Source of the DNA: Roseibacillus sp.
GTDB lineage: Bacteria; Verrucomicrobiota; Verrucomicrobiia; Verrucomicrobiales; Akkermansiaceae
DNA: 64,000 nucleotides
Direction: 5' to 3'
Assembly: GCA_965242925.1 (NCBI GenBank)
Contig: CBDEUM010000014.1
Coordinates: 224,001 to 288,000 of the forward strand
The first letter of the stretch is position 1; every line of letters starts with the position of its first letter. The position numbers were made by a program, and so were the translations under genes. Shown piece by piece: positions 10,277 through 40,531 of the stretch. Below the pieces are notes generated by a model that saw only the letters and a program-made list of their open reading frames with translations, was not told the origin of the DNA and ran no database searches.

Positions 10277-10707
10277 ATCTCCCGGACAGGAGGATTGTCA
10301 CGCCCGAAGTCCCTTCCTGATGGTGATGTTTCAAGACGAGAGCTCCAGGGATATTCCAAGATCCTCTTTAATGCAGTGAGCTTTCTTCGAAGAAACAAGG
10401 CGGTTGGAAAAGGGGCACTTCCTCCTCCGCTAGAATTCCTCACTCCACGATAATCCGCCCAGGTGATCAGGAAGATGGTGGAGATCAAGGAGTGCCTGCG
10501 GAAAAGCTACGTGAGAGAACACGAGGGAAGAGACCCGTTTGCCTCTCCCCTGATGCATCCGGCCGGAATCCGGTTTCTGGATGACGAGAAGGAGCGCCCG
10601 ATCCTCTCTCCCTTCTTCCCCGATGAAGAAGGATCCGCAGCGCAGGCCCCCTCCTGAAATCGAGGATCCCCTTGCTTCGACTGTCAAGACCCCTGAAGAT
10701 CCGCCTC

Positions 10708-22123: not shown

Positions 22124-22456
22124 GAGGAATCCAACCGCGGATCGTGGCCCATGGCGATCCTGGAAGCAGTTCTCCACAAGCTGCCTTAGGGCACGTCCGC
22201 GGTCGGCCATGCATCCGGTTTTCGGGCAATCGATCCACTAACTTTGAATATTAATTCTCCTTGAATACTTGATCCGCAGGTTTTTGACGGCGCAGACCTG
22301 GCAATTGTCATTGCCCAGATGAAGATCTCCCGCAAACGACGCGCCCTGCTGGCAGATCCTCTCACCGACAATAGCATCTGTGAGCCCATCCTACCTTTGC
22401 TCCATCATTTCATAATGAGCATGACAGCTCCTGATCAAATGATCAGGGTGTCCCGG

Positions 22457-25400
22457 ATGGTGAGAAGAAGGCAGGGCAGATTCGCAACAGGCGGGGCATT
22501 CCTCCTCGCATTGCTGACGATGCTCCCCGGCCAGATCCAGGCCCAGGGCAAGGATCCTGCCCTTGATCTCTACTACCTCGCCTCCGGTGCCTACAACCGG
22601 AAGCTCTACCCTGCCGCCATCGGCGGATTCCAGGAGTTCCTGCAGAAGAACGCCAAGCACACCAAGGCGGACCAGGCCCGGCAGGGCCTGGCCCTCAGCT
22701 TCTACGCGCAGAAGCAATACGCCCAGGCCATTCCTCACCTCGGCGCCCTCCTGGCCAAGCCCAATCTTCCCAAGGAGATCAGTCGCGACCGCATCATCCT
22801 GATGCAGGGACAGTGTCTCCTGCGCAGCGGCCAGAAGGACCAGGCCCGCGCCCACTTCATCAAGGAGGAAGGCAAGTTGCAAAATCCCGCCTACAAGGCC
22901 TCCGCCCTCGCGGCCATCTGTGACATCTGCTTCGGCAAGCACGAATGGGATCAGGTCAACACCTGGACCGCCAGGCTGGTGCAGGCCAAGGGCACCCCCG
23001 ACCAGATGGCCCGTGGTCTCTATCAGCAGGGCTTCGCGAATTACCAGCTGAAGAAATACGAGAAGGCCGCCGGGATCCTCGAAAAGGTCACCCCCCTCAC
23101 CGCCAACGCCATCTGGAAGACACGGTCCTCCTACCTCCTCGGTGAGTGCTACACCATCGTCAAGAACCACGAGAAGGCCGAGCCCGCATTCGTGGCAGCC
23201 CTCCCGGGCCTGGAGGGCCCCGACAAGACCGAGTGCCACTACCGCCTGGGAGTGACCCGGTTCATCCTGGAGAAGTGGGCTCCGGCCGCGGAAGAGTTCG
23301 AGACCTTCCTGAAAGAGGAGCCCGGAACCCGGGACAAGGAACAGAAGAAGGAGAACCCCTACATCAAGGAATCGCAGCTCTACATCGGGAGATGCCTGCT
23401 GGAGCAGGGAGAGTTCAAAAAGGCCCAGAACCGGCTCTCGGGGTTGATCAACGTGGACAGCCCGTTGGGAGCCAAGGCCAACCTGTGGTTCGCCCGCGTT
23501 TTTTCGCGTCCGGAGAAGCCAAATTACGATCAGGCCGCCGCCTCCCTGGAGCCTGCGGTCAAGAAATACCAGAAATTCGCTCCCTTCAACGACGACCTGC
23601 GCTTCGATTATGCCAACGCCCTGATGAGCCGCAACAACCCCGACTGGAAGACCGCGGCCCAGGCGCTGGGACAGATCAACGGTGGGGTCTTCGGCCAGTT
23701 CGCGGAGGTTCTCGCCCAGCGGGCCACCTGCTACCACAAGCTCAAGGACTACAACACGAGCCTGAACCTGGCCAACGAGTACCTGGCCAAGTTCAAGGAC
23801 CATGAGATGGCTGGGGACACCCGTTTCCTGCGGGCCGAGAACATGTTCCTGCTCAACCAGCTCGATAACGCCATCAAGGCCTACCAGGAGTACCTGGCCG
23901 CAGACAAGGAGCACCCCCACACTCTTGCCGCAGCCTTCCGGGTGGCCCAGATCCACCACCACCAGGATCGCTGGGATCAATCCCTGGCCGCCGCCACACC
24001 ACTCCTGGCCAAGAAGCCGGAGGGTCCCCTCTTCGCCCAGCTCGCCTTCCTGGTGGGCAACTGCCACTTCCGCAAGGAGCAGTGGAAGGAATGCCTGGAA
24101 CCGCTGGAAGCCTTCGTGGCCACCCGGGTGCAGAAGAAAGGCAACAACCAGCAGGTCACTGCCGACCCCAATGTGGACACCGCGCTCATCCAGCTCGCGG
24201 TCGCCTACGACCGCACCGAGGATTCCATCAAGGCCCTTGAGCACCTCGAGACCCTCACCCGCTTCTACCCCAAGCCCACTCCGCACCTGCCCCTGGCTCT
24301 CGCCGAGCAGGGACGGCTTGCCTACCAGCAGGAGAACCTTTCCCTGGCAAGGCAGTCCCTCGAGCGCTTCCTCAACGAGGACAAACAGAACAAGGAACCC
24401 TTCAAGAGCGGGGCCCCGCCCCAACGGTTCCGGGTGAATTACTTCCTCGGCTGGATCAATGCCACCGAGAAAAAGCATGAGCCGGCTGCGCTGCACTTTG
24501 GTGCGGTTTCCAGGCACCACCAGCACGACCTGGCCCCGGATGCCGCCCTGCAGGAGGGCCTCGCCTACGTCTACCTCGAAAAGTTCGACCAGGCCGCGAC
24601 CCTGTTTCCGCAGATCCTCCAACGCTACCCGAAACACGAGAAGCTCCAGCGCGTCACCTACTACGCCGGACTCTCGCTCGCCCGACTGGAGAAGTGGGGA
24701 CCGGCCGCCGGCCACCTGCGCAAGGTGGCCGATACCTGGCCGGATTCCGAGTTCGCAGACCAGGCGCTCTACGAGTGGGCGTGGTGCGAACGCAAGCAGA
24801 AGCGGGAGACCGAGGCGGTCAAACTCTACGAACGCTTCCTGGCCAAATACAAGCAGAGCGCCCTCGTGATCAAGGTGCAGAGCGAGCTTGCCGGACTCAA
24901 CCTCAAGAGCGGCGCCCAGGACATGGTCATCGAGCGCCTCACCAAGGCGCTTGGGGAGGTCAAGGACGACGCCCTCAAGGAAGACCTGCGCTACCAACTG
25001 GCCAGCGCCCATTTTAGCAAGGGCGAATACGAAAAATCCGCCGGCATGTTTGAGCAACTCCTCAACGACTACCCCAAGTCCAAGCTCAAGGCCTCCATGT
25101 GCTTCCAGGCCGGGGAATCACGCTACAAACTGAAGGAGACCGTGACCGCCCGCGGACACTTCGCCGAGGGCATGAAGGCGAGCGGTCTCCAACCCGCCAT
25201 CGCCGAGTCCATGATGATGCGCCTCGCTGAAATGCAGTCCGCCACCGCCGATCACACCGGTGCTCGCAAAACCTATCAGGACTTCATCGGACGTTTTCCG
25301 GAAAGCAAATGGAGGCGCAACGCCCAGTTCGGACTGGCCTGGTCCCTTGAGAATTCGGACAAGCCCAACGACGCCATCCACCACTATGCCCCTCTCCTCG

Positions 25401-25699
25401 ACCCGAAGACCCCCATTGACCTCTGGACTGTGAGGGCCCGCTTCCAGACCGGAGAGTGCTACTTCAACATGCAGAAGTACGAACAGGCCGTGAAGGAGTT
25501 CCTCAACGTCGAAATTCACTACAAGAAGCATCCCGGCTGGCAGGCCAAGGGGATCCTCGAAATCGGCCGGGTTCTCCTCGCCCAGAACAAACGCGAGGAC
25601 GCCAAGCAGCGCTTCAAGGATGTCATCATCCGCTACCCGAAGCAAAAGGCGGCCATCGTCGCGCGCCAGTACCTCGATCAACTCCGCACCAACGGATAA
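22457..25699 (+). CDS. Large secreted tetratricopeptide-repeat protein (CpoB/YbgF/BamD-like TPR type)
   Basis: Signal peptide (FLLALLTMLPGQIQAQ); many A..Y..G..Y.......A...F......YP TPR units. Start uncertain (22414-22457). Confidence 0.85.
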   Translation: MVRRRQGRFATGGAFLLALLTMLPGQIQAQGKDPALDLYYLASGAYNRKLYPAAIGGFQEFLQKNAKHTKADQARQGLALSFYAQKQYAQAIPHLGALLAKPNLPKEISRDRIILMQGQCLLRSGQKDQARAHFIKEEGKLQNPAYKASALAAICDICFGKHEWDQVNTWTARLVQAKGTPDQMARGLYQQGFANYQLKKYEKAAGILEKVTPLTANAIWKTRSSYLLGECYTIVKNHEKAEPAFVAALPGLEGPDKTECHYRLGVTRFILEKWAPAAEEFETFLKEEPGTRDKEQKKENPYIKESQLYIGRCLLEQGEFKKAQNRLSGLINVDSPLGAKANLWFARVFSRPEKPNYDQAAASLEPAVKKYQKFAPFNDDLRFDYANALMSRNNPDWKTAAQALGQINGGVFGQFAEVLAQRATCYHKLKDYNTSLNLANEYLAKFKDHEMAGDTRFLRAENMFLLNQLDNAIKAYQEYLAADKEHPHTLAAAFRVAQIHHHQDRWDQSLAAATPLLAKKPEGPLFAQLAFLVGNCHFRKEQWKECLEPLEAFVATRVQKKGNNQQVTADPNVDTALIQLAVAYDRTEDSIKALEHLETLTRFYPKPTPHLPLALAEQGRLAYQQENLSLARQSLERFLNEDKQNKEPFKSGAPPQRFRVNYFLGWINATEKKHEPAALHFGAVSRHHQHDLAPDAALQEGLAYVYLEKFDQAATLFPQILQRYPKHEKLQRVTYYAGLSLARLEKWGPAAGHLRKVADTWPDSEFADQALYEWAWCERKQKRETEAVKLYERFLAKYKQSALVIKVQSELAGLNLKSGAQDMVIERLTKALGEVKDDALKEDLRYQLASAHFSKGEYEKSAGMFEQLLNDYPKSKLKASMCFQAGESRYKLKETVTARGHFAEGMKASGLQPAIAESMMMRLAEMQSATADHTGARKTYQDFIGRFPESKWRRNAQFGLAWSLENSDKPNDAIHHYAPLLDPKTPIDLWTVRARFQTGECYFNMQKYEQAVKEFLNVEIHYKKHPGWQAKGILEIGRVLLAQNKREDAKQRFKDVIIRYPKQKAAIVARQYLDQLRTNG

Positions 25700-25744
25700 C
25701 AGAATCTCTCCGGCACTCCACCACTCCGACCCTGCCCTTTCCCC

Positions 25745-26485
25745 ATGACGAACTACACAACAACCCAACCCTGGAAAGCCGTCCTCGGCATGACCTCCCT
25801 CTTCCTCCTCGCTTTCACCACCACCCTGCTGGCAGCGGATGCCGGAGCCGATGCGGGCGTCGAGAAGGAAACAATGTTTTCCCTCATCAAGAAAGGGGGG
25901 CCGATCATGATCCCGCTGGGCCTCGCCTCCATCATCGCCCTCGCAATTGCCATCGAACGCTTCATCTCCCTGCGCCGGGACAGGATCCTACCGGACGGAT
26001 TCCTCAATGGGCTGGGCCAGGCCTGGGACTCCGATTCTTCCGGTCAGACCGCCGAGCAGTATTGCGAGCAGAACTCCGGCGCCGCCGGGCACGTCTTCAA
26101 GGCCGGCATCCAGTGGCGCGACTCGGGCTACCAGGCGGTGGCCAAGGCCATCGAAGACGCTGGCATCCGGGAGGCCGACAAGATGAAGCGCAGCCTGCGC
26201 GGGCTTTCAATCATCGCGGCAGTCTGCCCGTTGCTCGGACTTCTCGGCACGGTTTACGGGATGATCGATGCCTTCCAGCGGACCTCCTCCAGTGGGGGTG
26301 CGGCCAAGACCGCCGATCTCGCAACCGGGATTTACGAGGCCCTGGTGACCACCGCGGCCGGCCTCACCATCGCCATTCCCGCCATGCTGCTCTACCAGTT
26401 TCTCCAATCCAAGGTGGACGGCCTGATCGATCATATCGACGAGGTGGGCACCGAATTCATCGTCAAACATGCCCGCAGCCACTGA
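25745..26485 (+). CDS. exbB: MotA/TolQ/ExbB proton channel family protein
   Basis: CPLLGLLGTVYGMIDAF and LATGIYEALVTTAAGLTIAIPA signature helices. Confidence 0.93.
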   Translation: MTNYTTTQPWKAVLGMTSLFLLAFTTTLLAADAGADAGVEKETMFSLIKKGGPIMIPLGLASIIALAIAIERFISLRRDRILPDGFLNGLGQAWDSDSSGQTAEQYCEQNSGAAGHVFKAGIQWRDSGYQAVAKAIEDAGIREADKMKRSLRGLSIIAAVCPLLGLLGTVYGMIDAFQRTSSSGGAAKTADLATGIYEALVTTAAGLTIAIPAMLLYQFLQSKVDGLIDHIDEVGTEFIVKHARSH

Positions 26486-26531
26486 TGCCGGGTAGTCAAG
26501 GGCGACACACGGAAGCTTAACACCTGAACCC

Positions 26532-26948
26532 ATGAGAATTCGCAGCCGGGACAACGACCAGGGCGAGATAATCAACATCTCGAGCATGATCGACGTCATG
26601 TTCATCCTCATCATCTTCTTCCTGGTCACCACCACCTTCAAGGAGGAGGAAGTCGATCACCTCATCAAGTTGCCGGTCGAATCGCGTAACCAGTCGCTCA
26701 CCCAGACCGCGGGCAACCTGATCAAGGTCAATATCCGGGACAGCGGAGCCTACGTGGTGATGGGACAGCAGGTGACCGAAGAAGACCTCACCAAGTGGAT
26801 GAACGAGGAGGTCGAAAAGAAACCCGAACTCAAGGTCCTGATCCGTTGCGACAAGGAATCCAAGCACCTCTATCTCGCCAACGTGATGTCGATCTGCCGC
26901 CACGTGGGAGTTCCTGAGGCCAGCATCGCCGTCCGCACCGAGAAGTAG
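26532..26948 (+). CDS. exbD: ExbD/TolR family protein
   Basis: INISSMIDVMFILIIFFLVTT transmembrane helix with conserved Asp; periplasmic VLIRCDKES. Confidence 0.93.
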   Translation: MRIRSRDNDQGEIINISSMIDVMFILIIFFLVTTTFKEEEVDHLIKLPVESRNQSLTQTAGNLIKVNIRDSGAYVVMGQQVTEEDLTKWMNEEVEKKPELKVLIRCDKESKHLYLANVMSICRHVGVPEASIAVRTEK

Positions 26949-26960
26949 GCTGACAGAATT

Positions 26961-29648
26961 ATGAACCAGCCCATGCCCATCCCCATCGAGGACGATCGCG
27001 ACCCCGATCGCAGGATCCTCGGGGTGACACGCAGGCAGCGCTTCCGTGCCTATTTCTGGATCGGGGTTATCCTGATGGTGGGGTTCCTCATCTGGGCTCT
27101 TTTCTACCTCCGCCCCGACCGCTGGTACACCTACACCGACCAGGTCGCCTTCGAGCAGGTCGCCCGCGACGTGGAACCCGGTTACGTCCTCTGGGAAAAG
27201 GCCGAACCGGTCGGTAGCGGATTGGCCCCTGGCGACGACATCGCCACGCCGGTCGTCTCCTCCAACGGGGCCCGCATGATCTACAGTGCCGGGGAGAAGG
27301 ATGGAAACGCCAATCTCTTCCTGCGGGAGTGGGACGGCACCGACTGGAAGGAGCCGCGTCCCATGCGGGCGCTCAACAGCTCCTTCCACGAACTCGCTCC
27401 CTCCCTCAGTGGCAATGGGGAGCTCCTCTACTTTACCAGTGACCGCCCCGGAGGGCAGGGCGGCTTCGACATCTGGGTCTCGAAGTGGGACGGCTCCGAA
27501 TATGCATGGCCGCTCCCCCTCACACCCCGGGTTAACACGCCCTTCGACGAAATTGACCCGGACTTCGCTCCCGACAACCTCAAACTCTACTTTGCGTCCA
27601 ACCGCCCCCGCCGCGCGACTGACACCTCCGAGAAAGTGGCCGCCATCCTGGAGAACGTCGAGGACCGCAAGGGCAACTTTGACCTCTACTCTGCTGACAC
27701 AGCCGGCGGTATCCCCCCGACAGTAAAAGGTCTCCTGAAACTCCAGGCTGAACAGAAAGCGCTCGCTGATTCACTGCAGGGATCCGAAAGCCCCCCCGGG
27801 GAAGAAACCGCGACCCAGGCGCAGACAAGTGCCGCTCAGGCAGCCCAGTTTCTCAGGAAGGCCGCCCAGCGACTTGGGGACGACGAACTACCGGATCCAA
27901 TCGGGCAGTCTAAAGAGGCGCTGAGTGCAGCGATCCATGAGATGAAAAAGGTCGAAGAGGCCCTGAGTGAGGAGCCAGACATGGCCCGGGAGCAGCTCAT
28001 CATTCGGAAACAAGCCAACGTCATGAACACGGGCGCCCCGGTTGGCATCATCGTGGAGCGTCAGTTGAGCATGCTCTATTCCCTGCGTGAAAGCGCCCTC
28101 GCCGATACGGAGATCATGGCCAAGCTTGGCGGCACTCCCCAGACCGAGGCCGCGGTGGACAAGGGACTCGCCTACCTCGCTAGCACCCAGGAGGAAGATG
28201 GGCGTTGGAACATCGCCAAGTCCGGGGGACAGGGGAACCACGACCAGGCCGCCACCGCCTTCGCCCTCCTCGCCTTCTACGGCCGGGGAGAAGTGCACGA
28301 CGAGGAGTGCAAGTATCAGGACACCGTAAAACGGGGAATCGAGTGGCTGCACGGGCAAAGGAATGTGGCCACCGGAGACTTCCGTGGCACCAGGCCCCAG
28401 GGCAATGCCATGTATGACCACGGCATTGCCTCCCTCGCCGTGGTGGAGGCCTTTGGAGTCACCAAGGACACCACCCACCGTGCCGCGGCCCAGTCCGCAA
28501 TCGATTTCATTGTGGCAACCCAGCACGAAGAAGGCGGCTGGCGCTACACGCCCAATCAGAAGGGAGACCTCTCGGTCACCGGCTGGTACATCATGGCTCT
28601 CGCCAGCGCCAAGATGTCGGGCCTCGAGGTCCCGGACAAGACCATGGAAGGTGCCGCAAAGTTCCTCGCCAGCGTGAGTCACGGCAAGAACAAGGGAGCT
28701 TATGGCTACACCGGCCCGGGAGGGGGAACCCCGGCCATGAACGCGGCCGGCTTCTTCTGTTCCCAGTTGCTGGGTCATTCCTCCAATACATCCAAGGCCT
28801 ATGAATCCTCCGTCATCGTCGACCGCCAGGCCTTCCAGTTGAACGACATCTACTACGCCTACTACGGCACCGTGGCATCCTACCAGCACCAGGGCCCGGC
28901 CTGGCGCAAGTGGATGGGAGCAATGCAGCCGGCCTTCGTGAAGGCGCAGAACTCTGACGGCTCCTGGAACACGGGGGGAGGCCACGGCGGGGCCATGGGC
29001 AAGGTCATCGTGACCGCCCTGGTGACTCTCTGCCTGGAAGCCCACTACCGTTACACTCCCCTCTACGGCCTGGGCTGGGAACCCGACCCCGAGGGGCCCA
29101 CCGGAAACAGCAGGGATCTCGCCGACCTCGCCGAGACACCCCTCTTCCGCCACGCCAAGTTTCTCAAGGATTTCAGCTCCCCCGCCAACGACACCGGACC
29201 GGTCCTCACCGACCATGGGGACTTCCTCTATTTCGCCTCCGAGCGTGATGGGGGAGAGGGAGGGGCCGACATCTGGCGTTCGCGGATCAAACGCACCCGG
29301 GTCAACGAGCCCGTTCAACCGAAGAACCTCGGTCCCGAGATCAACGGGGAAGATGATGAGACCAACCCCGCGGTCCGCAATGCCGGCTTCCACCTCCTCT
29401 TCAACTCCGACCGCGAAAACAACAGGAATGCCCTCTACAGCGCCCGCAGCAAGCGTGTGGTGCGTCGCTTCGATCTCACCAAGATGCCCGACCTCAACTG
29501 GATCATGGGTAACATGCTCTGGATCCTTGGTCTCCTCGCCTCATTGATTGGTTTTGTCTGGCTCACCAGGCGGGCCCTGACCGCTGGCAAGGAAGCCCAA
29601 GCCTCATCCGCCCTGCCCGATGACGCCCCCCCCGATCCCGCTGCCTAA
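26961..29648 (+). CDS. Membrane-anchored PD40 (TolB-like) propeller + prenyltransferase/squalene-cyclase-like QW-repeat barrel protein
   Basis: N- and C-terminal TM helices; PD40 repeats (LYFTSDRPGGQGGFDIW, LYFASERDGGEGGADIW); QW motifs QEEDGRW, QHEEGGWRY, QNSDGSW. Confidence 0.8.
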   Translation: MNQPMPIPIEDDRDPDRRILGVTRRQRFRAYFWIGVILMVGFLIWALFYLRPDRWYTYTDQVAFEQVARDVEPGYVLWEKAEPVGSGLAPGDDIATPVVSSNGARMIYSAGEKDGNANLFLREWDGTDWKEPRPMRALNSSFHELAPSLSGNGELLYFTSDRPGGQGGFDIWVSKWDGSEYAWPLPLTPRVNTPFDEIDPDFAPDNLKLYFASNRPRRATDTSEKVAAILENVEDRKGNFDLYSADTAGGIPPTVKGLLKLQAEQKALADSLQGSESPPGEETATQAQTSAAQAAQFLRKAAQRLGDDELPDPIGQSKEALSAAIHEMKKVEEALSEEPDMAREQLIIRKQANVMNTGAPVGIIVERQLSMLYSLRESALADTEIMAKLGGTPQTEAAVDKGLAYLASTQEEDGRWNIAKSGGQGNHDQAATAFALLAFYGRGEVHDEECKYQDTVKRGIEWLHGQRNVATGDFRGTRPQGNAMYDHGIASLAVVEAFGVTKDTTHRAAAQSAIDFIVATQHEEGGWRYTPNQKGDLSVTGWYIMALASAKMSGLEVPDKTMEGAAKFLASVSHGKNKGAYGYTGPGGGTPAMNAAGFFCSQLLGHSSNTSKAYESSVIVDRQAFQLNDIYYAYYGTVASYQHQGPAWRKWMGAMQPAFVKAQNSDGSWNTGGGHGGAMGKVIVTALVTLCLEAHYRYTPLYGLGWEPDPEGPTGNSRDLADLAETPLFRHAKFLKDFSSPANDTGPVLTDHGDFLYFASERDGGEGGADIWRSRIKRTRVNEPVQPKNLGPEINGEDDETNPAVRNAGFHLLFNSDRENNRNALYSARSKRVVRRFDLTKMPDLNWIMGNMLWILGLLASLIGFVWLTRRALTAGKEAQASSALPDDAPPDPAA

Positions 29649-29669
29649 CCCAAGCGAAGGGAGAAGGCC

Positions 29670-32600
29670 ATGCCCGAACCGGAACAACAAAAACCCGAAC
29701 AACCCCCGGCCAACCACGCGCCCTCGCCGGCGCGCTGGCTGCTGCCGCTTGCCGCCCTCGCGGTAATGATCGGGATCGGCCTCCTCATCCAAGGCAAGCT
29801 CCGCAACGAGATCTGGTCCTACTTCACCGACGACCAGGGAACCCGCGTGGTAGTGCAGGATGGCAGGGAACGCTACATCCTCTGGCAGGATCCCCGGCAG
29901 AGCCTCTTCAAGGAAGAGGGCTCCACCGAAGAGCCCGATCCCGTCAATCAAGCCTCCGGTCGACTGGAAGCGGCCTTCTCCCCGAATGGCACCTCCATGG
30001 TCCTGGTCCGAACGGAAGCCGAAAACACCCGGGCCGACCTCTACTGGTCCACCTGGGATGGACGGCTCTGGACCCGCCCCACCGCTCTCAGCGCCCTCAA
30101 CACGGAGGCCGACGAGCGGGGACCGGCCTTCTCCCGCGACGGCAGGTATCTCTACTTCAGCTCCGATCGCGAGGGTGGCCAGGGAGGCACCGACATCTAC
30201 GTGGCCCGCTGGAACGGTCAGGAATGGACCGGCGTGGGAGCGCTGGGGACCACCGTCAATTCGCCCGCCCACGAAACCGGCCCCGCTCCCACCACCGACG
30301 GGAACCGCCTCTACTTCTCGTCCAATCGCGACGGCACCGGAAACGACATTTTCGTCTCACAACGTCTTGAGGAAACGCCTTCGGACCCCGGAGAGACTGC
30401 GAACGAAGCCGCCCCCGAACCAGTGGAGCCAAAAAATCCTGCCAATTCCGGGGAAGCAGTGGTCGAACTCCCGCCTCTCCCGAAATTTCGCAATGGGGAG
30501 ATCGTCGACCACCTCAATTCCTCCGCCGAGGACCTGCAGGCCGCCCTGACCCGGCGCGGCAACCATGTCTTCCTGGCCTCCGATCGCGATCGCAACACAG
30601 AGTCCGGTTTCGGCGTCTACTTCAGCCGCGTCATCGACGGGGAAGCGCTTCCTCCCGAGCGCGTCGACCTCTACCTCGACAGGGGTGATGTCACCGACCC
30701 CGCGGTACGCATGGAGGGCTTCGATCTCCTCTTCAGCACCAACTCCGGGACCAGCGAGGAGGAAGAAGGATTCAAGCTCTACCGTTCCACCACCCGTGAG
30801 GTCATTGGCTACACCAACCTCGATCGCTGGGAGTCCTTCAAGGAACTCATGAAGAATATCGGCTGGTGGATCCTCCTCGCTCTCCTCGCCCTCATTGCCC
30901 TCCTTTATCTCATGGAGGCCTGGCAGGACATCACCAACCTCTTCCACAAGTGCCTGGCCGGGTCCGCCGTCGTCCACCTCATCATTCTCTTTCTCCTCAT
31001 GCTCTGGCTCATCGCCAGGGAAGTGGGCGGCAAGGAGCCACAATCGCCCGTGGCCACCGTCAGCATCGAAGCCCTCATGGAGGAGGAACTGGCCCTCGAG
31101 AGCGAACCGGAACAGGCCCAGATCGCGGAAACCAAGAATCTTGTGATGACCGAGAAGTTCGACAGCGACTTCAAGATCCCCGTTTTCAAACCGCGTGAGA
31201 ATACCAAGGTCGTCCCCATCGTCACCAAGACTTCCAATGCCTCCCTCGTGCCCAGCGTGCGGCCCTCCAAGCTCAATGAATCGGAGTCGGAACAGGAACA
31301 ACCACAGCCCACCAAGGAACTCACCGTCCTGACCTCCCTGCCCGAGACCTTCCTCCCCGAACCGGAAGACCCCACCCTTGAGGAGGAGCAGGTCACCGAC
31401 CAGCAACTGGCCGAGAAACCGGCCGACCCCGCCGAGACCGAGTTCAAGCCCACCGAGTCCCTGGAGCAGGTGGAGCCCAAGCAGGCCGAGGAACACGAGG
31501 TGGTCGACACCGCCATCGAAAATGAGGCCGAGTCCAAGGATGTCTCGCAAACCGACTCCGCCCCCCAGGCCGCCGATACCGGGGGCGACATCGTCAATCC
31601 CCACCGCGGCCTGGAGGCCCTCGGCGCACCGCCCGAACTGGACGGGGCCGGAGACGCCATTACCAATCTGCTCAACCTCCCGGGGGACGCCCAGGCCAAT
31701 GACCCTCTCCTCCCCGGCAAACTGGCCACCCCGACCAATGATCTCGACACCCGGGCCATCACCAAGCTCATCAAGAAACAACGCGGACGGCCCTCACTGG
31801 ACACCATCGAGCAGCTTGGGGGATCGGACGCCACCGAGCGTGCCATCGGGGCGGCCCTTGAATGGCTCGCCCGCAACCAGGAGGGGGACGGCCGCTGGGA
31901 CATGCGCAAACACGGTGCCAACGGCGCCTACGATACCGCCGGGGCCGGACTGGCCCTGCTGTGTTTCTACGGCTGGGGCGAGGTTCACAACAAGGGTGGC
32001 AAATACCAGGCCACCGTCCAACGCGCCCTCGACTGGCTCATCAAGCAGCAGAAGGAAAACGGCGACCTGCGGGGCGGGGGCCGGATGTATTGCCACGGCA
32101 TCGCCGCCATCGCCCTCTGCGAGGCCTACGGTGCCACCAAGGATCCCAAGCTCAGGGAAGCGGCCCAGAAGGCCATCTCCCTGATCCTCGCCTCCCAGAG
32201 CCCCAGCAAGGGGGGTTGGCGCTACAACCCAGTCAACCAGAACAGTCAACCCAGTGAGGACTCCGACCTCTCGGTCACCGCCTGGCAGTACATGGCCCTG
32301 CACAGTGCCCGCCTGGCCGACCTCAGTGTCCCGGATGCGGCCTTCACCCGGGCCCAGAATTACCTGTCCTCGGTCTCCTCCGGAAAACACGGGGGGCTCT
32401 ACGCCTACACCGGCGGTGGGCCCAACCCCGCCATGACTGCCAGCGGCATGTTCTGCCGTCAGCTCGATCTCGTCCCCCCCACCGATCCCAGCATGCCGGA
32501 GAGCGCCGAATACCTGGGACGCCACAAGCTCCAGCAGAATCCCAAATACTACTACATGTACTACGCCACCCTCGCCCTCTACCAGCACCAGGGGCCAGTT

Positions 32601-32828
32601 TGGAAGGAGTGGAACGAGAAGCTGAAGGAGGTCCTGCCCCTCATCCAGAAGAAGGTCGGCCCCGAACGGGGAAGCTGGGATCCGGGCGGCCAGCACGCGC
32701 GGGCAGGCGGGCGGGTGGTCTCCACCACCCTCTCGGTCCTCAGCCTTGAGGTCTACTACCGTCTCCTCCCGATGTACGGGTTCCGTGGAGCGGACGACTT
32801 GCCCGCCGCCAAGAAAAAGGGCGAGTAG
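29670..32828 (+). CDS. Membrane protein: PD40 propeller, TM hairpin with SxxxH, acidic Pro-rich linker, C-terminal QW-repeat barrel
   Basis: LYFSSDREGGQGGTDIY repeats; GSAVVHLIILFLL; E/P/T-rich spacer; QEGDGRW, GGWRY, SDLSVTAW, LEVYYRLLPMY. Confidence 0.8.
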   Translation: MPEPEQQKPEQPPANHAPSPARWLLPLAALAVMIGIGLLIQGKLRNEIWSYFTDDQGTRVVVQDGRERYILWQDPRQSLFKEEGSTEEPDPVNQASGRLEAAFSPNGTSMVLVRTEAENTRADLYWSTWDGRLWTRPTALSALNTEADERGPAFSRDGRYLYFSSDREGGQGGTDIYVARWNGQEWTGVGALGTTVNSPAHETGPAPTTDGNRLYFSSNRDGTGNDIFVSQRLEETPSDPGETANEAAPEPVEPKNPANSGEAVVELPPLPKFRNGEIVDHLNSSAEDLQAALTRRGNHVFLASDRDRNTESGFGVYFSRVIDGEALPPERVDLYLDRGDVTDPAVRMEGFDLLFSTNSGTSEEEEGFKLYRSTTREVIGYTNLDRWESFKELMKNIGWWILLALLALIALLYLMEAWQDITNLFHKCLAGSAVVHLIILFLLMLWLIAREVGGKEPQSPVATVSIEALMEEELALESEPEQAQIAETKNLVMTEKFDSDFKIPVFKPRENTKVVPIVTKTSNASLVPSVRPSKLNESESEQEQPQPTKELTVLTSLPETFLPEPEDPTLEEEQVTDQQLAEKPADPAETEFKPTESLEQVEPKQAEEHEVVDTAIENEAESKDVSQTDSAPQAADTGGDIVNPHRGLEALGAPPELDGAGDAITNLLNLPGDAQANDPLLPGKLATPTNDLDTRAITKLIKKQRGRPSLDTIEQLGGSDATERAIGAALEWLARNQEGDGRWDMRKHGANGAYDTAGAGLALLCFYGWGEVHNKGGKYQATVQRALDWLIKQQKENGDLRGGGRMYCHGIAAIALCEAYGATKDPKLREAAQKAISLILASQSPSKGGWRYNPVNQNSQPSEDSDLSVTAWQYMALHSARLADLSVPDAAFTRAQNYLSSVSSGKHGGLYAYTGGGPNPAMTASGMFCRQLDLVPPTDPSMPESAEYLGRHKLQQNPKYYYMYYATLALYQHQGPVWKEWNEKLKEVLPLIQKKVGPERGSWDPGGQHARAGGRVVSTTLSVLSLEVYYRLLPMYGFRGADDLPAAKKKGE

Positions 32829-34963: not shown

Positions 34964-35257
34964 CTATTTCTCGGTTCTGATTGCGATGTTCGCCTTCGGA
35001 ACCCCGACGTAACGGCAGATGGACATCACGTTGGCAAGGTAGAGGTGCTTGGACTCCTTGTCACAGCGGATCAGGACCTTGAGATCGGGGTTTTTCTCGA
35101 ACCTCTCGTTGATCCACTTGGTGAGACCTTCCTCGGTCACCTGCTGGCCCATCACGACCATGGCACCGTTGTGACGAATGTTGACCTTGATCAGGTTGCC
35201 AGCGGTCTGGGTGAGGGACTGGGGCCTTGAATCAGTCGGCAGTTTGATGAGGTGATC
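34964..35257 (-). repeat. Diverged inverted copy of the exbD 3' segment (26655..26948)
   Basis: 294-nt colinear match from DHLIKLP to RTEK-stop, without indels. Confidence 0.9.
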
Positions 35258-35872
35258 CGCGCTCGTATCCGTATTCTTCACCCGCCCGGATGCCGTGATA
35301 AATATTTTTTCGGGCCCCACCCCGTATTCAATTGTGAACCACACCACTTCACTGAATCGCCACCGCAGTGCTTTGTTCCCGTTATTTTTCCCATAGGCGG
35401 CTCCCTTGTCCCGGGTAAACCGGTTAGCCTTATAAAAAGGGGGATTAAATAAATCCGGGTGGGAATTCTGCCAATGTTGGGCTGTGGCACCAAAGGGCTT
35501 GAGGGTGTCCTCCCAGAACTTTCGGTAGGCAGCCAGGGAATCGGCATTGGGCTCTACAAGGTGGGCATCGTGGTCAGGATGCTCTTTGACAACCTCATCC
35601 ATTACAAGCTGGGGAGCCCGGGGCCAGATGTCACCGTTTGCCTCCAGGTAACGCTGCATCGCAACGTGCAGTGCCATCAGGTCCTCCGTGGCTTCCTCGA
35701 TAGCGCCTTTTTCCTGCCAGAGCAGGGGCAGGGTGGCAAAGGATTGCGTATTTTCCTTTGCTTCAGGGCCGTCCGGGTTCCGGCTCTCTTCATTGGCGGG
35801 CTTTTCACAGGCCACCAGGAGCAAGGCCAGAGAGGCTGTAATGAAGCAAGCCAAGGAACCTCTTACATTCAT
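34964..35872 (-). CDS. Chimeric lipoprotein with C-terminal ExbD periplasmic domain
   Basis: Lipobox LLLVAC; last 97 aa match the ExbD at 26532 at 81/97 positions by manual alignment. Confidence 0.75.
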   Translation of the reverse strand: MNVRGSLACFITASLALLLVACEKPANEESRNPDGPEAKENTQSFATLPLLWQEKGAIEEATEDLMALHVAMQRYLEANGDIWPRAPQLVMDEVVKEHPDHDAHLVEPNADSLAAYRKFWEDTLKPFGATAQHWQNSHPDLFNPPFYKANRFTRDKGAAYGKNNGNKALRWRFSEVVWFTIEYGVGPEKIFITASGRVKNTDTSADHLIKLPTDSRPQSLTQTAGNLIKVNIRHNGAMVVMGQQVTEEGLTKWINERFEKNPDLKVLIRCDKESKHLYLANVMSICRYVGVPKANIAIRTEK

Positions 35873-35956: not shown

Positions 35957-38900
35957 TCATGGTTGTCTCTTCGGCTCCACTCCAAAATGATGCAACACGT
36001 TCCTGACCAGCGCGCTCAGGGCCTTGTCATGATACATGGCCCAGGCCGTCGCGATTGAACCGGTGTGAAAAACCTGTCCCCCTTCAGGCCGCTCCCAATA
36101 GATGATCTCCGCAATGGTCTGCTCATCTCCCGCCCTTGGCCGGTGCGCTTCGGCATTGAAATCAAGGATGTTCCGCTTGTCCTGGCTGCTGGCGATGGTG
36201 ACGATCCCCTTCGGTTCTGCCAGCCCTTTCAGGGCCGGATTCCTGGTCGCCCTCAGCAACGTCGAGAGGCGCACGTCGTACTCGTGACCGACTGCACCGA
36301 TGCTCTTGTTGACGAACCCGAAGGGATCTCCCTCTTGCAGATCGATCTTGTGGGGTTTGTTGAAAAGGAAATGATCCGGCAGATCAGCGTGATAGGGCTT
36401 GAAGTTCAAGCCACCCCACCCGGCACAGGTCAACCCGACCAGCTTCCATGCGGGGTAGCCGCAGAAACGCATCAGGCTCCCGCGCTTGAAATCGTGGCTA
36501 TGGTAGAGTTCGCCCACCTTGGCCCGGGCCCGGCCCCCGATACTTTTCCCGAACTTACGACACTCCATCACCTCGCCACTGTCGTCGAAGCTCACCCGCC
36601 AGAACATGGTGTTTCCTGACATCACCACCGCCGCCCCACCGGCCTTCAGATAGTTATCAAGACCGTCGTAGGCGCGGCTTGACCAGTATTCGCTGTGTCC
36701 GTTGATGCAGACCGCCTTGTAGCCATTCAATATTTCCGGGTGACGGTCCAGGTCGTGGTCGGTGATGACATCGTAGTGGTAGCCGTGGTCGTCCAGCCAG
36801 AGGTGCAGGAAGCGCTCGCCACGGAGCAGATGGCTGTAGCCTCCGCCGATATAGGTCTTGTTGGGCCCTCCCGCCGGCCAGGGCACTTTCATGCCGATCT
36901 TATAGGTCGGCTGGCCGTTGTGGTGATCACTGTAGCAGCTGTAGCTGGGCGCTCCCGGGTGGCTGTTGCCCAATCCACCCGTCCCCATGTTGACCAGGCC
37001 CGGCCCATGATTCACCGGAAAGGGAGTCGAATTGTAGGCCAGCCAGGTATTTGACGAAACGAGAACGAGCAGGGGCGCCTTCGGCCTGGCCTCGGGGCGC
37101 CGCACGATGAAGGAGGCATGGTAGCGCATCGGTTTGCCGTTCAACTGGAAATCGAAGCGTCCGGCGTAGACGCCCGACTTGGCATGGGCAGGAACACGGA
37201 ATCGATGGCTTACCTTCCAACGGGCATTGTATATTTCGTCAGTGGCCAAGCGGAGCCCGTGACCTCGTCTGGCATCCTTGGTCGGATCGTATGCCGTATC
37301 GTGTCGGCCGATCGCCGCCGCATCAAAGGTCGGGCCGCCGATCATCCAGGTTCCCCGGTTGATGATCCTGCCATTGCGTCCAAAATCACTCGTATCGGCT
37401 ACTTCTACACCCCGTTCCTCGGTGAACGGCCAGCAGGCCAGCAGGCGGTCATCCCTGGGAACGCTCAAGCCGCGACCGGAAAAACGTTTCCTGATTTGAT
37501 CCTCACTTAGAGCCCGGTCATAGATAGCACACATCGCGATGTCGCCGTTATAGAAGTTCACCGCCGTTCCCTTTTGACCATAGGCCCCGATGCGCAGGGC
37601 GGTCTCGCCAGGTCTTACTGTTCCGGCGAAGGGGAACTCGGCAACAAGTTTGCCGTCCACATAAACCCGTTTTTTCTTCCCATCCCAGCAACCAACGAGG
37701 TGGTGCCATTGCTGGGCCTTGATCAGCCCGGGCTCGGTCTGGTGAAAGGCGGCCTGATCGTAAGCACCTCCTGCCCCGGTGCCAAAGACGATCCTCCCCT
37801 CGCTAAGAAACAACCCAACTCCACAACGTTCCGGATAATCGTGCTGGGTGATCAAGCCCTGCCAGCCGGTCAACTTGAATGGGCGGATCCAGCATTCCAG
37901 GGTCAGCTGCGACAAGCGTCTCTCGACAGGTAGAGCTTTGGCCACATGCACGTAGGACCCCGGATGGATCGCCTGGGCCTGCGGTTGTTCGACCCGAAAG
38001 GTTTGCAGCACCGGATCCTTGTCCCGGCTCTCGGGATCCTGCCCCAGTTGCACGACGCTCAGGTCGTAAGGGACGCTGCTGCTGACTCGAAACTCGATTT
38101 CCTCACCCGCCGCAATGCTCTTCTGCGCGTAGGCGTGCAGACCTGGCAAATCCACCGGCTGATGCGGGGGTATTTCCTGTTCCTTGCCTGCATTCCCCTC
38201 CGTGGAAGCAAAGGCGGCAGGCAACTTGGCCGCTTTCAAATAAGCCACCAGGTCGGCAATTTCTCCAGGTTTCAAGAGGCCGTCAAAAACCCGGGGCATT
38301 AACGAAATGTTCGAATACTTTGCCGCTTTGATGTCCCGAATCGGCACGGAGTGTTCCAATCCGGGCGCCGGCGCGAGGACCATCTTATCCACGGTATCCC
38401 TCAGGATCAGGCCCCCTGTTTCTCCTTTCCTGGTCTGCACCTTCACCAGTTCGTAGTAACGGGCAATCGATGAACTGGGATAGACGATCGCCTCCAGAAG
38501 GTCCTGTTCACTGCGAATGGACCCGATTCCGGTCAGGTCAGGACCGAACTTCACTCCCTGATCCCCCATGACGTGACAGGTGATGCACAAGGATTTGGAA
38601 GCATTGTGAAATAGCTTCTCTCCTCGATCCGGATCTCCCTCCGGCAGCAGGGCCGACAGCTCCTTGAGACGCGTCTGTTGAAGAGCCGCCGCTTCCGGAT
38701 CGGACTCGACGGCATCCGCCAGCTGGATCCTCGGCATGGCCTGGGGCGCGGGATCCGCTTCGCCAAGCTCGTGCATGAGACGAACCTGCCTTCCCAGCGG
38801 ATCATCCTCGGAAAGGCTCCGGGTGTCTCCGATCTCGTAGAGTGCATAGATGATGGCGTGCCTCAAAAACGCATCCATCTTCTTCGAGCTGGCCGCCACC

Positions 38901-40468
38901 AGGGGTTTCACCGCCCTGCGATCCCCGATCCGGCCCAGGGCCATCGCTGCCAGTCGGCTTTGGTGGGCATCACCACCAAGCAGGCGGGTCAACGGCTCCA
39001 CCGCGACTGGATCGCGCCACAGCCCCACACTGTGGATCGCGGCCGCGCACACATCAGCACTTCCATCGCTGAGAAATTCCCGCACCACCGCTCGCGCCGC
39101 CTGCCCCGGGATCCGGTGCAGGGCCCAGAGGGCGGGGATTCGGGCTTTGGCCGTGCGCAATTCATCGATGTTTCCCTCCTTGGCAAGGGCATCGATGGCC
39201 AGCTTGACCACCGCAGGTCGACCATCAGAAAGCCAGCTGACTTCAGGTTTACCCCAGTCCAGTTCGAGGCCCCGGGAGTTTCCGGGCGGGAGCGCCCCCT
39301 TTCTTTGGACCCGATAAATGGCGCCCAGGACATGGGGCTTGGCCACCTTCGAGGTCGGGCAACAGATCATGTACCAACTGCCCGTATCCGCCACGAGGAG
39401 ACTGCCATCCGCATCTTCAATCACATCAGTGGGATGAAAATCGGTCTGATCACTCTCAAGAAAAACGCTCGTCTCTGCGGAGTAGGTCGATCCGGACCGG
39501 GACAGCCTGTGCCTCGACAGGCGTCGCAGGTTGAAGTCGGCGCAAAGCAAATCACCCCGGAAACCGAGCACATCACTTACAGGCATCACGATCCCCGATG
39601 GAGCCGCGGGACCCATTTGGGCAAGAATCGGCAGCAACCCTCCCGAACTGGGATGTGGTGCGAGCACGCGATCGTTCTTCTTGCCGTAGATCCCTCCATG
39701 GACGGCATGGAGAATGCCGTCCCGTTTCCCGGGACCGGACAGGTCAAAAAAGGTGCCGCTCAAGAACCGCTCCCCCGTCCTGCTGAATGCCAGCCCCACG
39801 GGATTGTTCATTCCCCCTGTAATCACCACTTCCAGGCCGCTGCCGTCGGGTCTGGCGCGATAGACATGTGCGGCGCTTGATTTAAACGTCCTCCCATTAC
39901 CGAGCACATGGCTCTGCGGAGAAAACGCGCCCTTGCACCAGTAGAAATATCCGTCCGTCCCCAGATAGGGTCCGTGCAGATCGTTGCCGCAACCTTCGAT
40001 TGATCCACCGTCGAACCAGACCGTCCGCTCATCGGCCGCGTGATCTCCATTCGTATCGCGAAGTTTCCAGATATGTGGAGGGGCCCCCACATAAACCGCG
40101 CCCTGATGCACGAGGATGCCCTCCGGAAAAGGGAGGCGCTCGGCAAAGACGGTCGATCGATCAAAGACACCATCGCCATCCTGATCGACCAACCGCAACA
40201 CCCGATGACTTGGGTTCTTGAGTTGAGCAGGGGCCTTATCCGTGTTCCCGGAGCTATCCGTGACGTAGAGTACGCCATTCTCATCGAAGCACATGTGAAT
40301 GGGCCTCTGCACAAGGGGCGGCGCAGCGACCAGCTTCAAGGTGTAGCCGTCGGGAATGGTAAATGTATGCGGAGAGAACGTGACTTTCTTGGCGTTCAGC
40401 AGGGACGAACAGAGGATCAGAACCTGCAAACCCAGACATGCGCGTAAGAAATTCGGCAAGGATTTCAT
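35957..40468 (-). CDS. PVC-type heme-binding (CxxCH) protein fused to a LamG-containing N,N-dimethylformamidase beta-subunit-like domain
   Basis: FTIPDGYTLKLVAAPP, FHPTDV, HEAT repeats, CITCH...GPDLT...SLMP; then YAQKSIAAGEEIEFRVS, LamG (WHHLVGCWDG, YNGDIAMCAIYDRALS), NTWLAYN, GHSEYWS, SGNTMFWRV, GQVFHTGSI. Confidence 0.82.
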   Translation of the reverse strand: MKSLPNFLRACLGLQVLILCSSLLNAKKVTFSPHTFTIPDGYTLKLVAAPPLVQRPIHMCFDENGVLYVTDSSGNTDKAPAQLKNPSHRVLRLVDQDGDGVFDRSTVFAERLPFPEGILVHQGAVYVGAPPHIWKLRDTNGDHAADERTVWFDGGSIEGCGNDLHGPYLGTDGYFYWCKGAFSPQSHVLGNGRTFKSSAAHVYRARPDGSGLEVVITGGMNNPVGLAFSRTGERFLSGTFFDLSGPGKRDGILHAVHGGIYGKKNDRVLAPHPSSGGLLPILAQMGPAAPSGIVMPVSDVLGFRGDLLCADFNLRRLSRHRLSRSGSTYSAETSVFLESDQTDFHPTDVIEDADGSLLVADTGSWYMICCPTSKVAKPHVLGAIYRVQRKGALPPGNSRGLELDWGKPEVSWLSDGRPAVVKLAIDALAKEGNIDELRTAKARIPALWALHRIPGQAARAVVREFLSDGSADVCAAAIHSVGLWRDPVAVEPLTRLLGGDAHQSRLAAMALGRIGDRRAVKPLVAASSKKMDAFLRHAIIYALYEIGDTRSLSEDDPLGRQVRLMHELGEADPAPQAMPRIQLADAVESDPEAAALQQTRLKELSALLPEGDPDRGEKLFHNASKSLCITCHVMGDQGVKFGPDLTGIGSIRSEQDLLEAIVYPSSSIARYYELVKVQTRKGETGGLILRDTVDKMVLAPAPGLEHSVPIRDIKAAKYSNISLMPRVFDGLLKPGEIADLVAYLKAAKLPAAFASTEGNAGKEQEIPPHQPVDLPGLHAYAQKSIAAGEEIEFRVSSSVPYDLSVVQLGQDPESRDKDPVLQTFRVEQPQAQAIHPGSYVHVAKALPVERRLSQLTLECWIRPFKLTGWQGLITQHDYPERCGVGLFLSEGRIVFGTGAGGAYDQAAFHQTEPGLIKAQQWHHLVGCWDGKKKRVYVDGKLVAEFPFAGTVRPGETALRIGAYGQKGTAVNFYNGDIAMCAIYDRALSEDQIRKRFSGRGLSVPRDDRLLACWPFTEERGVEVADTSDFGRNGRIINRGTWMIGGPTFDAAAIGRHDTAYDPTKDARRGHGLRLATDEIYNARWKVSHRFRVPAHAKSGVYAGRFDFQLNGKPMRYHASFIVRRPEARPKAPLLVLVSSNTWLAYNSTPFPVNHGPGLVNMGTGGLGNSHPGAPSYSCYSDHHNGQPTYKIGMKVPWPAGGPNKTYIGGGYSHLLRGERFLHLWLDDHGYHYDVITDHDLDRHPEILNGYKAVCINGHSEYWSSRAYDGLDNYLKAGGAAVVMSGNTMFWRVSFDDSGEVMECRKFGKSIGGRARAKVGELYHSHDFKRGSLMRFCGYPAWKLVGLTCAGWGGLNFKPYHADLPDHFLFNKPHKIDLQEGDPFGFVNKSIGAVGHEYDVRLSTLLRATRNPALKGLAEPKGIVTIASSQDKRNILDFNAEAHRPRAGDEQTIAEIIYWERPEGGQVFHTGSIATAWAMYHDKALSALVRNVLHHFGVEPKRQP

Positions 40469-40531
40469 GCTGACAATTTTGCGCAAATAAGGAGGATGTT
40501 ATAAATTCAATGTCCTGCGGGATCGACCGGC

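Follow-up and report, generated by a model that had tools for sequence, protein, structure and literature searches.

A five-gene cluster of Roseibacillus sp. probably encodes a motor powered by the proton motive force (PMF), dedicated and coupled to a force transducer, the membrane protein P5, whose head is an alpha/alpha toroid. We assign to this reading a probability of about 0.6. The cluster lies in a stretch of 64,000 nucleotides (contig C14, positions 224001-288000; hereafter the window, to which all positions without a contig name refer) from a genome of 4.58 Mb (89.9% complete). In textbooks, two systems, Ton and Tol, allow diderm bacteria to use the energy of the inner membrane at their outer envelope. 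The original prediction on this DNA, made from its letters, had proposed a distinct PMF-driven envelope machine with rearranged Tol-like modules. This proposal is strengthened by the finding of a conserved gene unit with a motor of its own, but the likeness to TolB and CpoB holds at the fold and repeat level only, and transducers with von Willebrand factor A (vWA) heads offer a precedent.

The five open reading frames (ORFs) are all on the plus strand, in the order TPR-ExbB-ExbD-P4-P5, with gaps of 45, 46, 12, and 21 nucleotides. They encode a giant periplasmic tetratricopeptide repeat (TPR) protein (22319-25699; ORF of 1126 amino acids; Pfam TPR_6, E-value 9.9e-46), an ExbB/TolQ-type proton-channel subunit (25745-26485; 246 amino acids; PF01618, 2.8e-30), an ExbD/TolR-type subunit (26532-26948; 138 amino acids; PF02472, 7.6e-26), and the two proteins P4 (26961-29648; 895 amino acids; PD40, 4.7e-26, and SQHop_cyclase_N, 6.4e-08) and P5, the proposed force transducer (29670-32828; 1052 amino acids; PD40, 2.2e-22, and SQHop_cyclase_C). 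The Pfam matches to the toroids are each barely above cut-off, with 32.6 bits for SQHop_cyclase_N in P4 and 27.6 bits for SQHop_cyclase_C in P5. The paralogy between P4 and P5 spans three modules, with identities of 45% for the toroid, 35% for the first PD40 module (PD40a), and 27% for the second (PD40b). In P5, the order of the modules is transmembrane segment 1 (TM1), PD40a, PD40b, TM2, TM3, linker, and toroid, and in P4 it is TM1, PD40a, toroid, PD40b, and TM2. Thus, the gene content described in the original prediction was found as such: five co-oriented and tightly spaced genes for a TPR protein of about 1,100 amino acids, an ExbB with its signature intact, an ExbD with the transmembrane Asp, and two paralogous membrane proteins combining PD40 repeats and a toroid. 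For both the TPR protein and ExbB, a signal peptide was assigned by eye, without a predictor.

The evidence for a coupling between motor and transducer begins with the membrane helices of P5. A hydrophobicity scan located TM1 at residues 24-42 (29739-29795) and TM2 at residues 397-415 (30858-30914), on the two sides of the Pfam PD40 module (29946-30815). TM3 (residues 430-448; 30957-31013) is similar to the anchor helix of TolA and TonB, and carries Ser432 (30963-30965) and His436 (30975-30977). This Ser-x3-His pair is invariant in 60/60 P5 homologues (47-83% identical), and so are a number of positions in the short loop preceding TM3. When 19 sequences including distant short forms were aligned (20-59% identical), His436 was the only invariant column. 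The same His was again the only invariant column among 46 diverse representatives obtained by profile search, with Ser kept in at least 90% of them. BLASTP of P5 residues 420-520 against residues 1-100 of E. coli TolA placed P5 432-446 on TolA 18-31, with 8/15 identical residues, Ser on S18, and His on H22 (E-value 0.002 for that single comparison; the E. coli TolA and TolQ sequences came from the K-12 tol-pal locus).

These positions have a known role in the Tol motor. In the cryo-electron microscopy structure of TolQRA, TolA S18 and H22 form hydrogen bonds with I29 and S28 of TolQ (PMC12583513; PMC12905483), and the substitutions H22A and S28A break the contact between TolA H22 and TolQ S28 and impair function (PMC12583513). 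On the motor side of our cluster, S62 in TM1 of ExbB aligns with E. coli TolQ S28, and it is invariant in 16/16 P5-linked ExbBs.

After TM3, P5 continues with a conserved motif and a long linker. The motif (residues ~460-478; 31047-31103) was recognized in the alignments about 25 residues after TM3 and is conserved among sequences from 20 to 59% identity, with a Leu at column 95 in at least 90% of the 19 sequences. It is a candidate "motor box," a concept introduced for the strand that follows the helix in TolA and TonB (PMC12204202), whereas AlphaFold2 (AF2) draws the P5 motif as a low-confidence helix. The linker (residues 453-708, 256 amino acids; 31026-31793) is predicted to be disordered (AF2 predicted local distance difference test score, pLDDT, <50), and it is acidic and Pro-rich (E 14.1%, P 10.5%, net charge −29). 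The C-terminal toroid (residues 710-1038; 31797-32783) is instead modeled with a pLDDT of ~90 and contains QW-like repeats. For the whole P5 model, the mean pLDDT was 64.1 and the predicted TM-score (pTM) 0.41. The placement of a QW barrel at the effector end, already proposed for this cluster, becomes concrete with a toroid in the position of the TonB/TolA C-terminal domain, although P5's own anchor had been overlooked. Similarly, the statement that no canonical TonB, TolA, Pal, or TonB-dependent receptor is encoded in the window remains correct for TonB_C and TonB-dependent receptors, but P5 has a TolA/TonB-like helix and an OmpA-domain ORF is present at 59999-61054 (minus strand). The original interpretation is partly supported and becomes sharper, with P5 itself as the probable missing TolA or TonB.

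The two motor proteins are bona fide members of their families. ExbB passes PF01618 with 105.1 bits (cut-off 22.9), and ExbD passes PF02472 with 91.1 bits (cut-off 25.4). Residues T169, T203, and P212 of ExbB are invariant in a 16-sequence alignment and also in an alignment that includes E. coli TolQ; in E. coli, the pore threonines are T145 and T178 of TolQ and T148 and T181 of ExbB (PMC12905483). The transmembrane Asp21 of ExbD is present and invariant in 16/16 aligned sequences. Conversely, the equivalog cut-offs were reached neither by ExbB (TolQ TIGR02796, 92.8 bits against 221; ExbB TIGR02797, 68.4 against 206.2) nor by ExbD (TolR, 53.1 bits against 127.3; ExbD, 39.8 against 216). On the NCBIfam scores, both subunits are closer to the TolQ/TolR models than to the ExbB/ExbD models.

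Then, we compared the motor with its relatives inside and outside the genome, which contains a total of seven MotA/ExbB matches and eight ExbD matches (six other ExbB and six other full-length ExbD). The maximum-likelihood tree of ExbB (18 rows) left 12/15 inner branches open and showed long paralogue branches; orthology was therefore judged by pairwise BLASTP scores. The ExbB of the window is 43-78% identical (162-397 bits) to eight P5-linked ExbBs of other lineages, against 26-32% (23-91 bits) for the six paralogues of its own genome. For ExbD, the identity to eight P5-linked ExbDs was 36-82% (82-246 bits), against 34% over 126 residues (75 bits) for the best of the five own-genome paralogues with a BLASTP match; one short own-genome match, of 66 residues, reached 36% (47 bits). 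These values fit a motor that forms its own orthologous group, apparently co-inherited with P5-like genes.

Gene order points in the same direction. We collected 107 related loci, of which 20 came from reference genomes, seven from a phylum sample, and 80 from metagenomes. Among them, 24 had no match spanning the transmembrane hairpin of P5 and 38 had less than 4.5 kb of upstream sequence, which left 45 assessable loci. Many of the loci come from close relatives and some almost duplicate each other (P5 identity 25-99%), so the counts are not independent. The full order TPR-ExbB-ExbD-P4-P5 was kept in 35/45 loci, in agreement with the conservation expected by the original prediction, while four of the 45 had ExbB, ExbD, and a P5-like gene without P4 (distant short or toroid forms). 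Overall, ExbB-ExbD lies directly 5' of the P5-like gene in 39/45 loci, and a TPR gene is found upstream of it in 44/45. In the phylum sample, P5 residues 250-470 were matched in 8/401 genomes, including the genome under study, and all seven of the other genomes have an ExbB in the fetched locus. None of the 31 further genomes that this sample includes from the family of the window was matched by the hairpin query, and a link of the cluster to the mucin-utilization locus of Akkermansia, which had been considered, was dropped. This kind of cluster is widespread in metagenomes of the Planctomycetes-Verrucomicrobia-Chlamydiae (PVC) bacteria.

The hairpin also occurs with other heads. A profile built on the alignment of the hairpin and the post-helix motif, searched against 1.84 billion representatives, retrieved 361 representative clusters (50% identity) at E-values up to 1e-3, 108 at 1e-10, and 27 at 1e-30. 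The match usually begins near residue 340-430 of proteins of 730-2,279 amino acids. We sampled 46 of the 150 listed proteins, choosing the longer ones within a residue limit. PD40 was found in 41 of the 46, SQHop_cyclase_C in 11, and SQHop_cyclase_N in seven, and 22/46 had a GGW.Y-type toroid motif after the helix. Other domain matches were VWA_2 (6/46), VWA (5/46), VWA_3 (3/46), DUF6288 (2/46), and CarboxypepD_reg (1/46); P4 and P5 themselves had no VWA match in Pfam. Two distant Verrucomicrobiota loci, L024 (12176-14485) and L027 (11978-14485), have after ExbD a protein of 770-835 amino acids with PD40, the hairpin, and a long disordered tail but no toroid. The C-terminus of these two proteins is a short, conserved, and acidic motif of the Glu-Leu-Glu-Val-Pro-Glu type, which is seen again in several representatives of ~750 amino acids and may be a peptide "head" or a docking tag.

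Judging from these domain matches, one PD40-hairpin chassis carries a toroid, a vWA domain, or no recognizable head. The sharing of the chassis with vWA heads ties the P5 family to the published vWA force transducers (PMC12204202). That work of 2025 (Williams-Jones et al., Mol Biol Evol) proposed vWA-headed and SHLS-bearing transducers in PVC and other bacteria, those of PVC bacteria being encoded downstream of TPR, tolQ, and tolR genes, with no phenotype known (PMC12204202). The view that this architecture lacked any functional description therefore stands for the toroid- or PD40-bearing transducer, of which our literature search found no description, and has to be revised for the vWA precedent. 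The available text of PMC12204202 contained, in a term search, no mention of a toroid, PD40, or prenyl-type domain.

P4 and P5 were further compared at the structural level. In P4 we located TM1 (27054-27110, TM scan), PD40a (27183-27701, Pfam), the alpha/alpha toroid (28110-29072, AF2 fold and Foldseek), PD40b (29190-29459, Pfam), and TM2 (29493-29549, TM scan). P4 has no His-bearing helix, and no conserved transmembrane His was seen in the alignment of its homologues. Between PD40a and the toroid, it has a helical insert of ~100 residues (residues ~253-356) that is absent from most homologues (~780-800 amino acids). The AF2 model of P4 had a mean pLDDT of 78.8 and a pTM of 0.73, and Foldseek matched it to AprG, to a single-domain squalene-hopene cyclase (SHC), and to TolB. 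For the PD40 part of P5, the best Foldseek match in the PDB was TolB (2w8b_A; E-value 2.6e-08, target TM-score 0.37), and for the P5 toroid we obtained 8pak_A (E-value 1.6e-06, TM-score 0.64). In general, the toroids matched the single-domain SHC 8pak, MstE, AprG, and GH76-type (glycoside hydrolase) folds, with E-values of ~1e-06 to 1e-05, target TM-scores of 0.56-0.64, and 11-18% identity. The suggested link to TolB thus holds as regards PD40 repeats and propeller fold only, as the TolB model TIGR02800 gives 38.7 bits for P5 and 25.5 for P4, against a cut-off of 343.15. This match covers the PD40 repeats only, and P4 and P5 are membrane-anchored, unlike TolB, which is soluble in the periplasm and consists of an N-terminal alpha/beta domain followed by a propeller of six blades.

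The motif DxDD defines class II terpene cyclases. It was found, in the toroid columns, in 0/60 P5 and 0/56 P4 homologues, and the CxEQ thioester motif was not found in P4 or P5. The toroid as terpene cyclase or thioester protein was rejected on these grounds, and we propose that it could rather be a binding module. In the ESM Atlas, the toroid falls among unnamed "prenyltransferase/squalene oxidase repeat" clusters, mainly of Planctomycetota. The genome under study has ten toroid-bearing ORFs: four secreted proteins of ~330 amino acids, three of ~490-550 amino acids with a transmembrane segment and a linker, P4, P5, and a P5-like frame of 2003 amino acids on contig C30. The three tethered proteins (C29:74376-75881, C14:150339-151997, and C30:40186-41658) have an N-terminal transmembrane helix, a Ser/Pro-rich linker between helix and toroid, and no His in the helix; they resemble TonB in layout but lack the docking residue. 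Because signal-peptide-like N-termini occur in 4/10 of these ORFs, the toroid is probably an extracytoplasmic domain; and since the number of transmembrane segments between PD40 and toroid is even, both modules of P5 would be periplasmic.

The TPR protein is a constant neighbor of P5-like genes. The start given in the original prediction, 22457, is Met47 of the frame, and the relatives align from residues ~23-79 onward; the protein likely starts between Met33 and Met47 (22415-22457), followed by a signal-peptide-like stretch. It contains seven TPR stretches of the YbgF/CpoB type, which reach 219 bits on TIGR02795 only as their sum, the best single stretch scoring 63 bits in the genome search against a cut-off of 90.1. 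The CpoB model NF008068 was also missed (36.5 bits, cut-off 383), and the CpoB/YbgF layout, one YbgF TPR domain behind a coiled coil in ~260 amino acids, is not that of a protein of ~1,100. Consequently, the proposed kinship to CpoB is retained for the type of repeat and not for the protein as a whole. At the genome level, no TolB or Pal model scored above cut-off anywhere in the ~90%-complete assembly, in which canonical Tol-Pal was thus not detected.

Giant TPR genes accompany three other ExbB-ExbD loci of this genome, so that motor plus TPR is a recurring theme. One of them (C18:48000-66000) includes a TPR protein of 2383 amino acids, ExbB, two ExbD, an ORF of 166 amino acids, DUF4159, and a TPR protein of 580 amino acids. 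The second (C29:372000-390000) has ExbB, ExbD, and two TPR proteins of ~818 amino acids, and the third (C42:88000-97806) has ExbB, two ExbD, and a TPR protein of 1111 amino acids.

On this basis, the machine could work as follows. ExbB and ExbD would form a dedicated proton-driven motor of the 5:2 type. P5 would cross the membrane with TM1, expose the TolB-like PD40 module in the periplasm, return through TM2 to a short conserved cytoplasmic loop, and leave again through TM3 toward the 256-residue linker and the periplasmic toroid. TM3 would dock via Ser432 and His436 on ExbB TM1, in the region of Ser62, just as TolA docks on TolQ and TonB on ExbB, with the post-TM3 motif acting as motor box. 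The flow of protons would then exert tension on the linker and, beyond it, on any component of the outer envelope bound by the toroid head. P4, anchored at both ends and with no His helix, the giant CpoB-like TPR protein, and the PD40 module of P5 could provide a set of periplasmic scaffolds or partners.

Several observations weigh against this coupling. The anchor helix of TonB and TolA carries the motif SHLS, Ser-x3-His-x6-Leu-x3-Ser (PMC12905483). In P5, only its Ser and His (S432 and H436) are conserved: L443 is present but the residue at this position varies in the family, the final Ser is Leu447, and the Ser is Ala in three distant members. The helix with the His comes last among the three transmembrane segments, starting at residue 430, and is not a single N-terminal anchor. 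The 15-residue BLASTP match to TolA sits in a hydrophobic helix, and the hairpin is modeled by AF2 with modest confidence (pLDDT ~60-74). Neither TonB_C nor the TolA C-terminal domain was found by Pfam in P5 or P4. On P5 385-710, a Pfam search at E-values up to 1 gave chance-level DUF matches only, with no TonB or TolA N-terminal family, and phmmer of P5 385-540 against the PDB sequences gave three irrelevant matches (E-value of at least 0.11). The three tethered toroid paralogues without the His indicate that tethering a toroid needs no docking to a motor. At the level of loci, a TPR and a P5-like gene without upstream ExbBD were found in 5/45, one of which has an ExbB just downstream; P4 and P5 stood alone in 1/45; and the P5 paralogue of the same genome (frame of 2003 amino acids, C30:297968-303979) has no adjacent motor. 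The presence in 8/401 genomes, as seen with the query used, argues against a universal housekeeping role. A complex prediction with two copies of the periplasmic domain of ExbD (38-138) and P5 450-540 (score 0.03, mark 0.32), run without controls, counts neither way.

The motor could also be an ordinary Ton motor, with the TPR protein, P4, and P5 as unrelated operon-mates. ExbBD pairs can serve TonB proteins encoded elsewhere, and the genome has a single TonB_C protein, on C13 and without an adjacent motor, together with three receptor matches (C9, C24, and C29). This orphan TonB has, however, six other ExbB and six other full-length ExbD to draw on, including a pair on C30 without TPR genes. 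The orthologues of the motor are the P5-linked motors found across the phylum rather than the paralogues of the same genome, so that a role limited to serving the orphan TonB as a spare ExbBD is improbable: the pairwise identities argue against the very possibility that the original prediction had indicated as fatal to its proposal. In addition, this explanation has to face the invariant Ser-x3-His helix encoded by P5, two genes downstream of the motor. We regard it as quite unlikely, although one motor could be compatible with both roles.

A different explanation accepts P4 and P5 as envelope proteins but makes them independent of the motor, for example as enzymes or binding proteins acting on glycans or lipids, with the His helix used for oligomerization or signaling and the motor merely co-regulated. 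The toroid fold is indeed similar to that of terpene cyclases, AprG, and GH76/GH-type glycosidases, most of the ten toroid ORFs of the genome are far from any motor, genes for sulfatases, an esterase, and a 3-keto-disaccharide hydrolase are present in the window (a context typical of marine polysaccharide degraders), and five of the 45 loci lack an adjacent motor. The missing DxDD and CxEQ motifs and the linkage of motor and transducer in 39/45 loci speak against it, and it leaves unexplained why toroid and vWA heads share a PD40-hairpin chassis; on balance it appears improbable, if less so than the Ton motor. Lastly, the coupling could be as we propose and yet drive surface motility, adhesion, or a surface structure, similarly to the Agl-Glt complex for gliding in Myxococcus. 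Agl-Glt includes TPR proteins and a TolQR-like motor with TonB-like proteins, and a gliding-type role was suggested for the related vWA transducers by the authors of PMC12204202. Since the window showed neither outer-membrane nor adhesin genes of the Glt type, we hold this version to be about as doubtful as the Ton motor.

If P5 is a force transducer driven by this motor, its output could be a Tol-like tethering or maintenance of the outer envelope layers, or the energized capture or uptake of polymers, either external or located at the surface. Each of the two is possible without being favored, and the remaining weight goes to other roles. Capture is considered as likely as tethering because of the patchy distribution (8/401 genomes) and of the polysaccharide-degrader gene context. 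More broadly, and tentatively, the cluster could represent a further PVC family of PMF-driven trans-envelope transducers, with one chassis (tethered propeller, His hairpin, motor box, and linker), swapped heads (toroid, vWA, or a short C-terminal peptide), and always a giant TPR protein. In organisms that, like this one, show no canonical TolA, TolB, or Pal, the toroid form would do a job similar to that of Tol-Pal, or capture polymers, by pulling a toroid-held ligand of glycan or outer-layer nature.

The operon adds a second non-canonical head, the toroid, to the vWA head proposed only in 2025, and shows that the chassis, which includes a tethered propeller of the TolB type, is conserved and goes together with a motor inherited along with it and with a giant TPR protein as a constant partner. 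It also offers residues on which the coupling can be tested (S432 and H436 of P5, S62 of ExbB, and D21 of ExbD) and a family of 361 clusters from which a tractable host can be chosen. If the coupling is true, it would widen the known uses of 5:2 motors and may help to explain how energy reaches the outer layers in Verrucomicrobia and Planctomycetes, two groups with envelopes and polymer uptake that are still little understood.

Some features around the cluster and its relatives deserve mention. About 2 kb downstream and on the opposite strand, a predicted lipoprotein of 302 amino acids (34964-35872, minus strand), with a lipobox-like N-terminus and Cys (by eye) and a Pfam ExbD match (7e-10), is a possible accessory gene. 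Its last 98 residues, without a transmembrane segment, are 83% identical (81/98) to residues 41-138 of the operon ExbD, and an ExbD-like match in this position is found in close relatives only. This protein could act as a decoy or as a partner, or it could bind peptidoglycan. The sole peptidoglycan-binding-type domain of the window is a weak OmpA-family match (30.5 bits) in the ORF of 351 amino acids at 59999-61054, which is 27 kb from the cluster and adjoins an ORF of 991 amino acids without Pfam match (both within 56996-61054, minus strand). The regions 5412-13554 and 35957-40486 have the PVC-typical PSCyt1/PSCyt2/PSD1 proteins with DUF1501, plus two proteins with DUF7133 and cytochrome c, one of which, of 1509 amino acids, also has HEAT, Laminin_G_3, and DMFA2_C domains.

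A promoter scan of the window gave 0 sigma-70-like sites, and the number of terminator-like sites, 23, was near that expected from shuffling (15.2 ± 4.1); the scan was not used to set the limits of the operon. All five genes are partly covered, at 95-99+% identity, by contigs from RNA libraries (four libraries, three studies), with one contig bridging the ExbB/ExbD junction. The flanking genes are also covered, so that DNA carry-over is possible, and these contigs are weak evidence, indicating presence in RNA libraries only.

The P5-like frame of 2003 amino acids on C30 is 52-61% identical to P5 in pieces, and the TPR gene upstream of it is 50% identical, with no ExbBD between the two. Its part 5' of the P5-like region contains long tandem Pro-rich peptide repeats, and its start is uncertain. 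A similar layout, with a TPR gene and a long P5 but no motor, is present in the loci L086, L087, L092, and L094; L084 and L088 show it as well, over a shorter stretch of upstream DNA.

Among known systems, Tol-Pal with its TolQ-TolR-TolA motor shares with the cluster a motor that has the transmembrane Asp and the Thr ring, the alignment of the P5 Ser-x3-His helix on TolA S18-W31 and of ExbB S62 on TolQ S28, and the presence of TolB-like PD40 and YbgF-type TPR modules in one cluster. It differs in that the cluster has no TolA C-terminal domain, no free TolB, and no Pal, its PD40 repeats being membrane-anchored and its TPR protein four to five times the size of CpoB. With ExbB-ExbD-TonB, the cluster shares the motor family, the Ser/His helix, and a flexible Pro/Glu-rich linker, but it includes neither TonB_C nor a TonB-dependent receptor, and the equivalog cut-offs were missed. 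The heads of P4 and P5 have the fold and the QW-like repeats of alpha/alpha toroids such as 8pak, MstE (6sbe), AprG (9lfq), and GH76 (6y8f). They differ from these by the low identity (11-18%), the absence of DxDD, a probably periplasmic location, and their insertion in a membrane-tethered multidomain protein.

The vWA transducers, as described in the available text of PMC12204202, are another system close to the cluster. Like P5, these proteins have a transmembrane helix with a conserved His of the SHLS type, a motif after the helix (in P5, a candidate motor box), a disordered linker, and a globular head other than that of TonB, and like our cluster they are next to TPR and TolQ/TolR-type genes, although the cluster has one ExbD and not two heterologous TolR genes (PMC12204202). 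Unlike them, P5 has an alpha/alpha toroid as its head and an N-terminal module of ~420 residues (TM1, PD40 propeller, and TM2) that is absent from the description given in that text (PMC12204202), and the cluster includes P4, a second and double-anchored paralogue with toroid and PD40.

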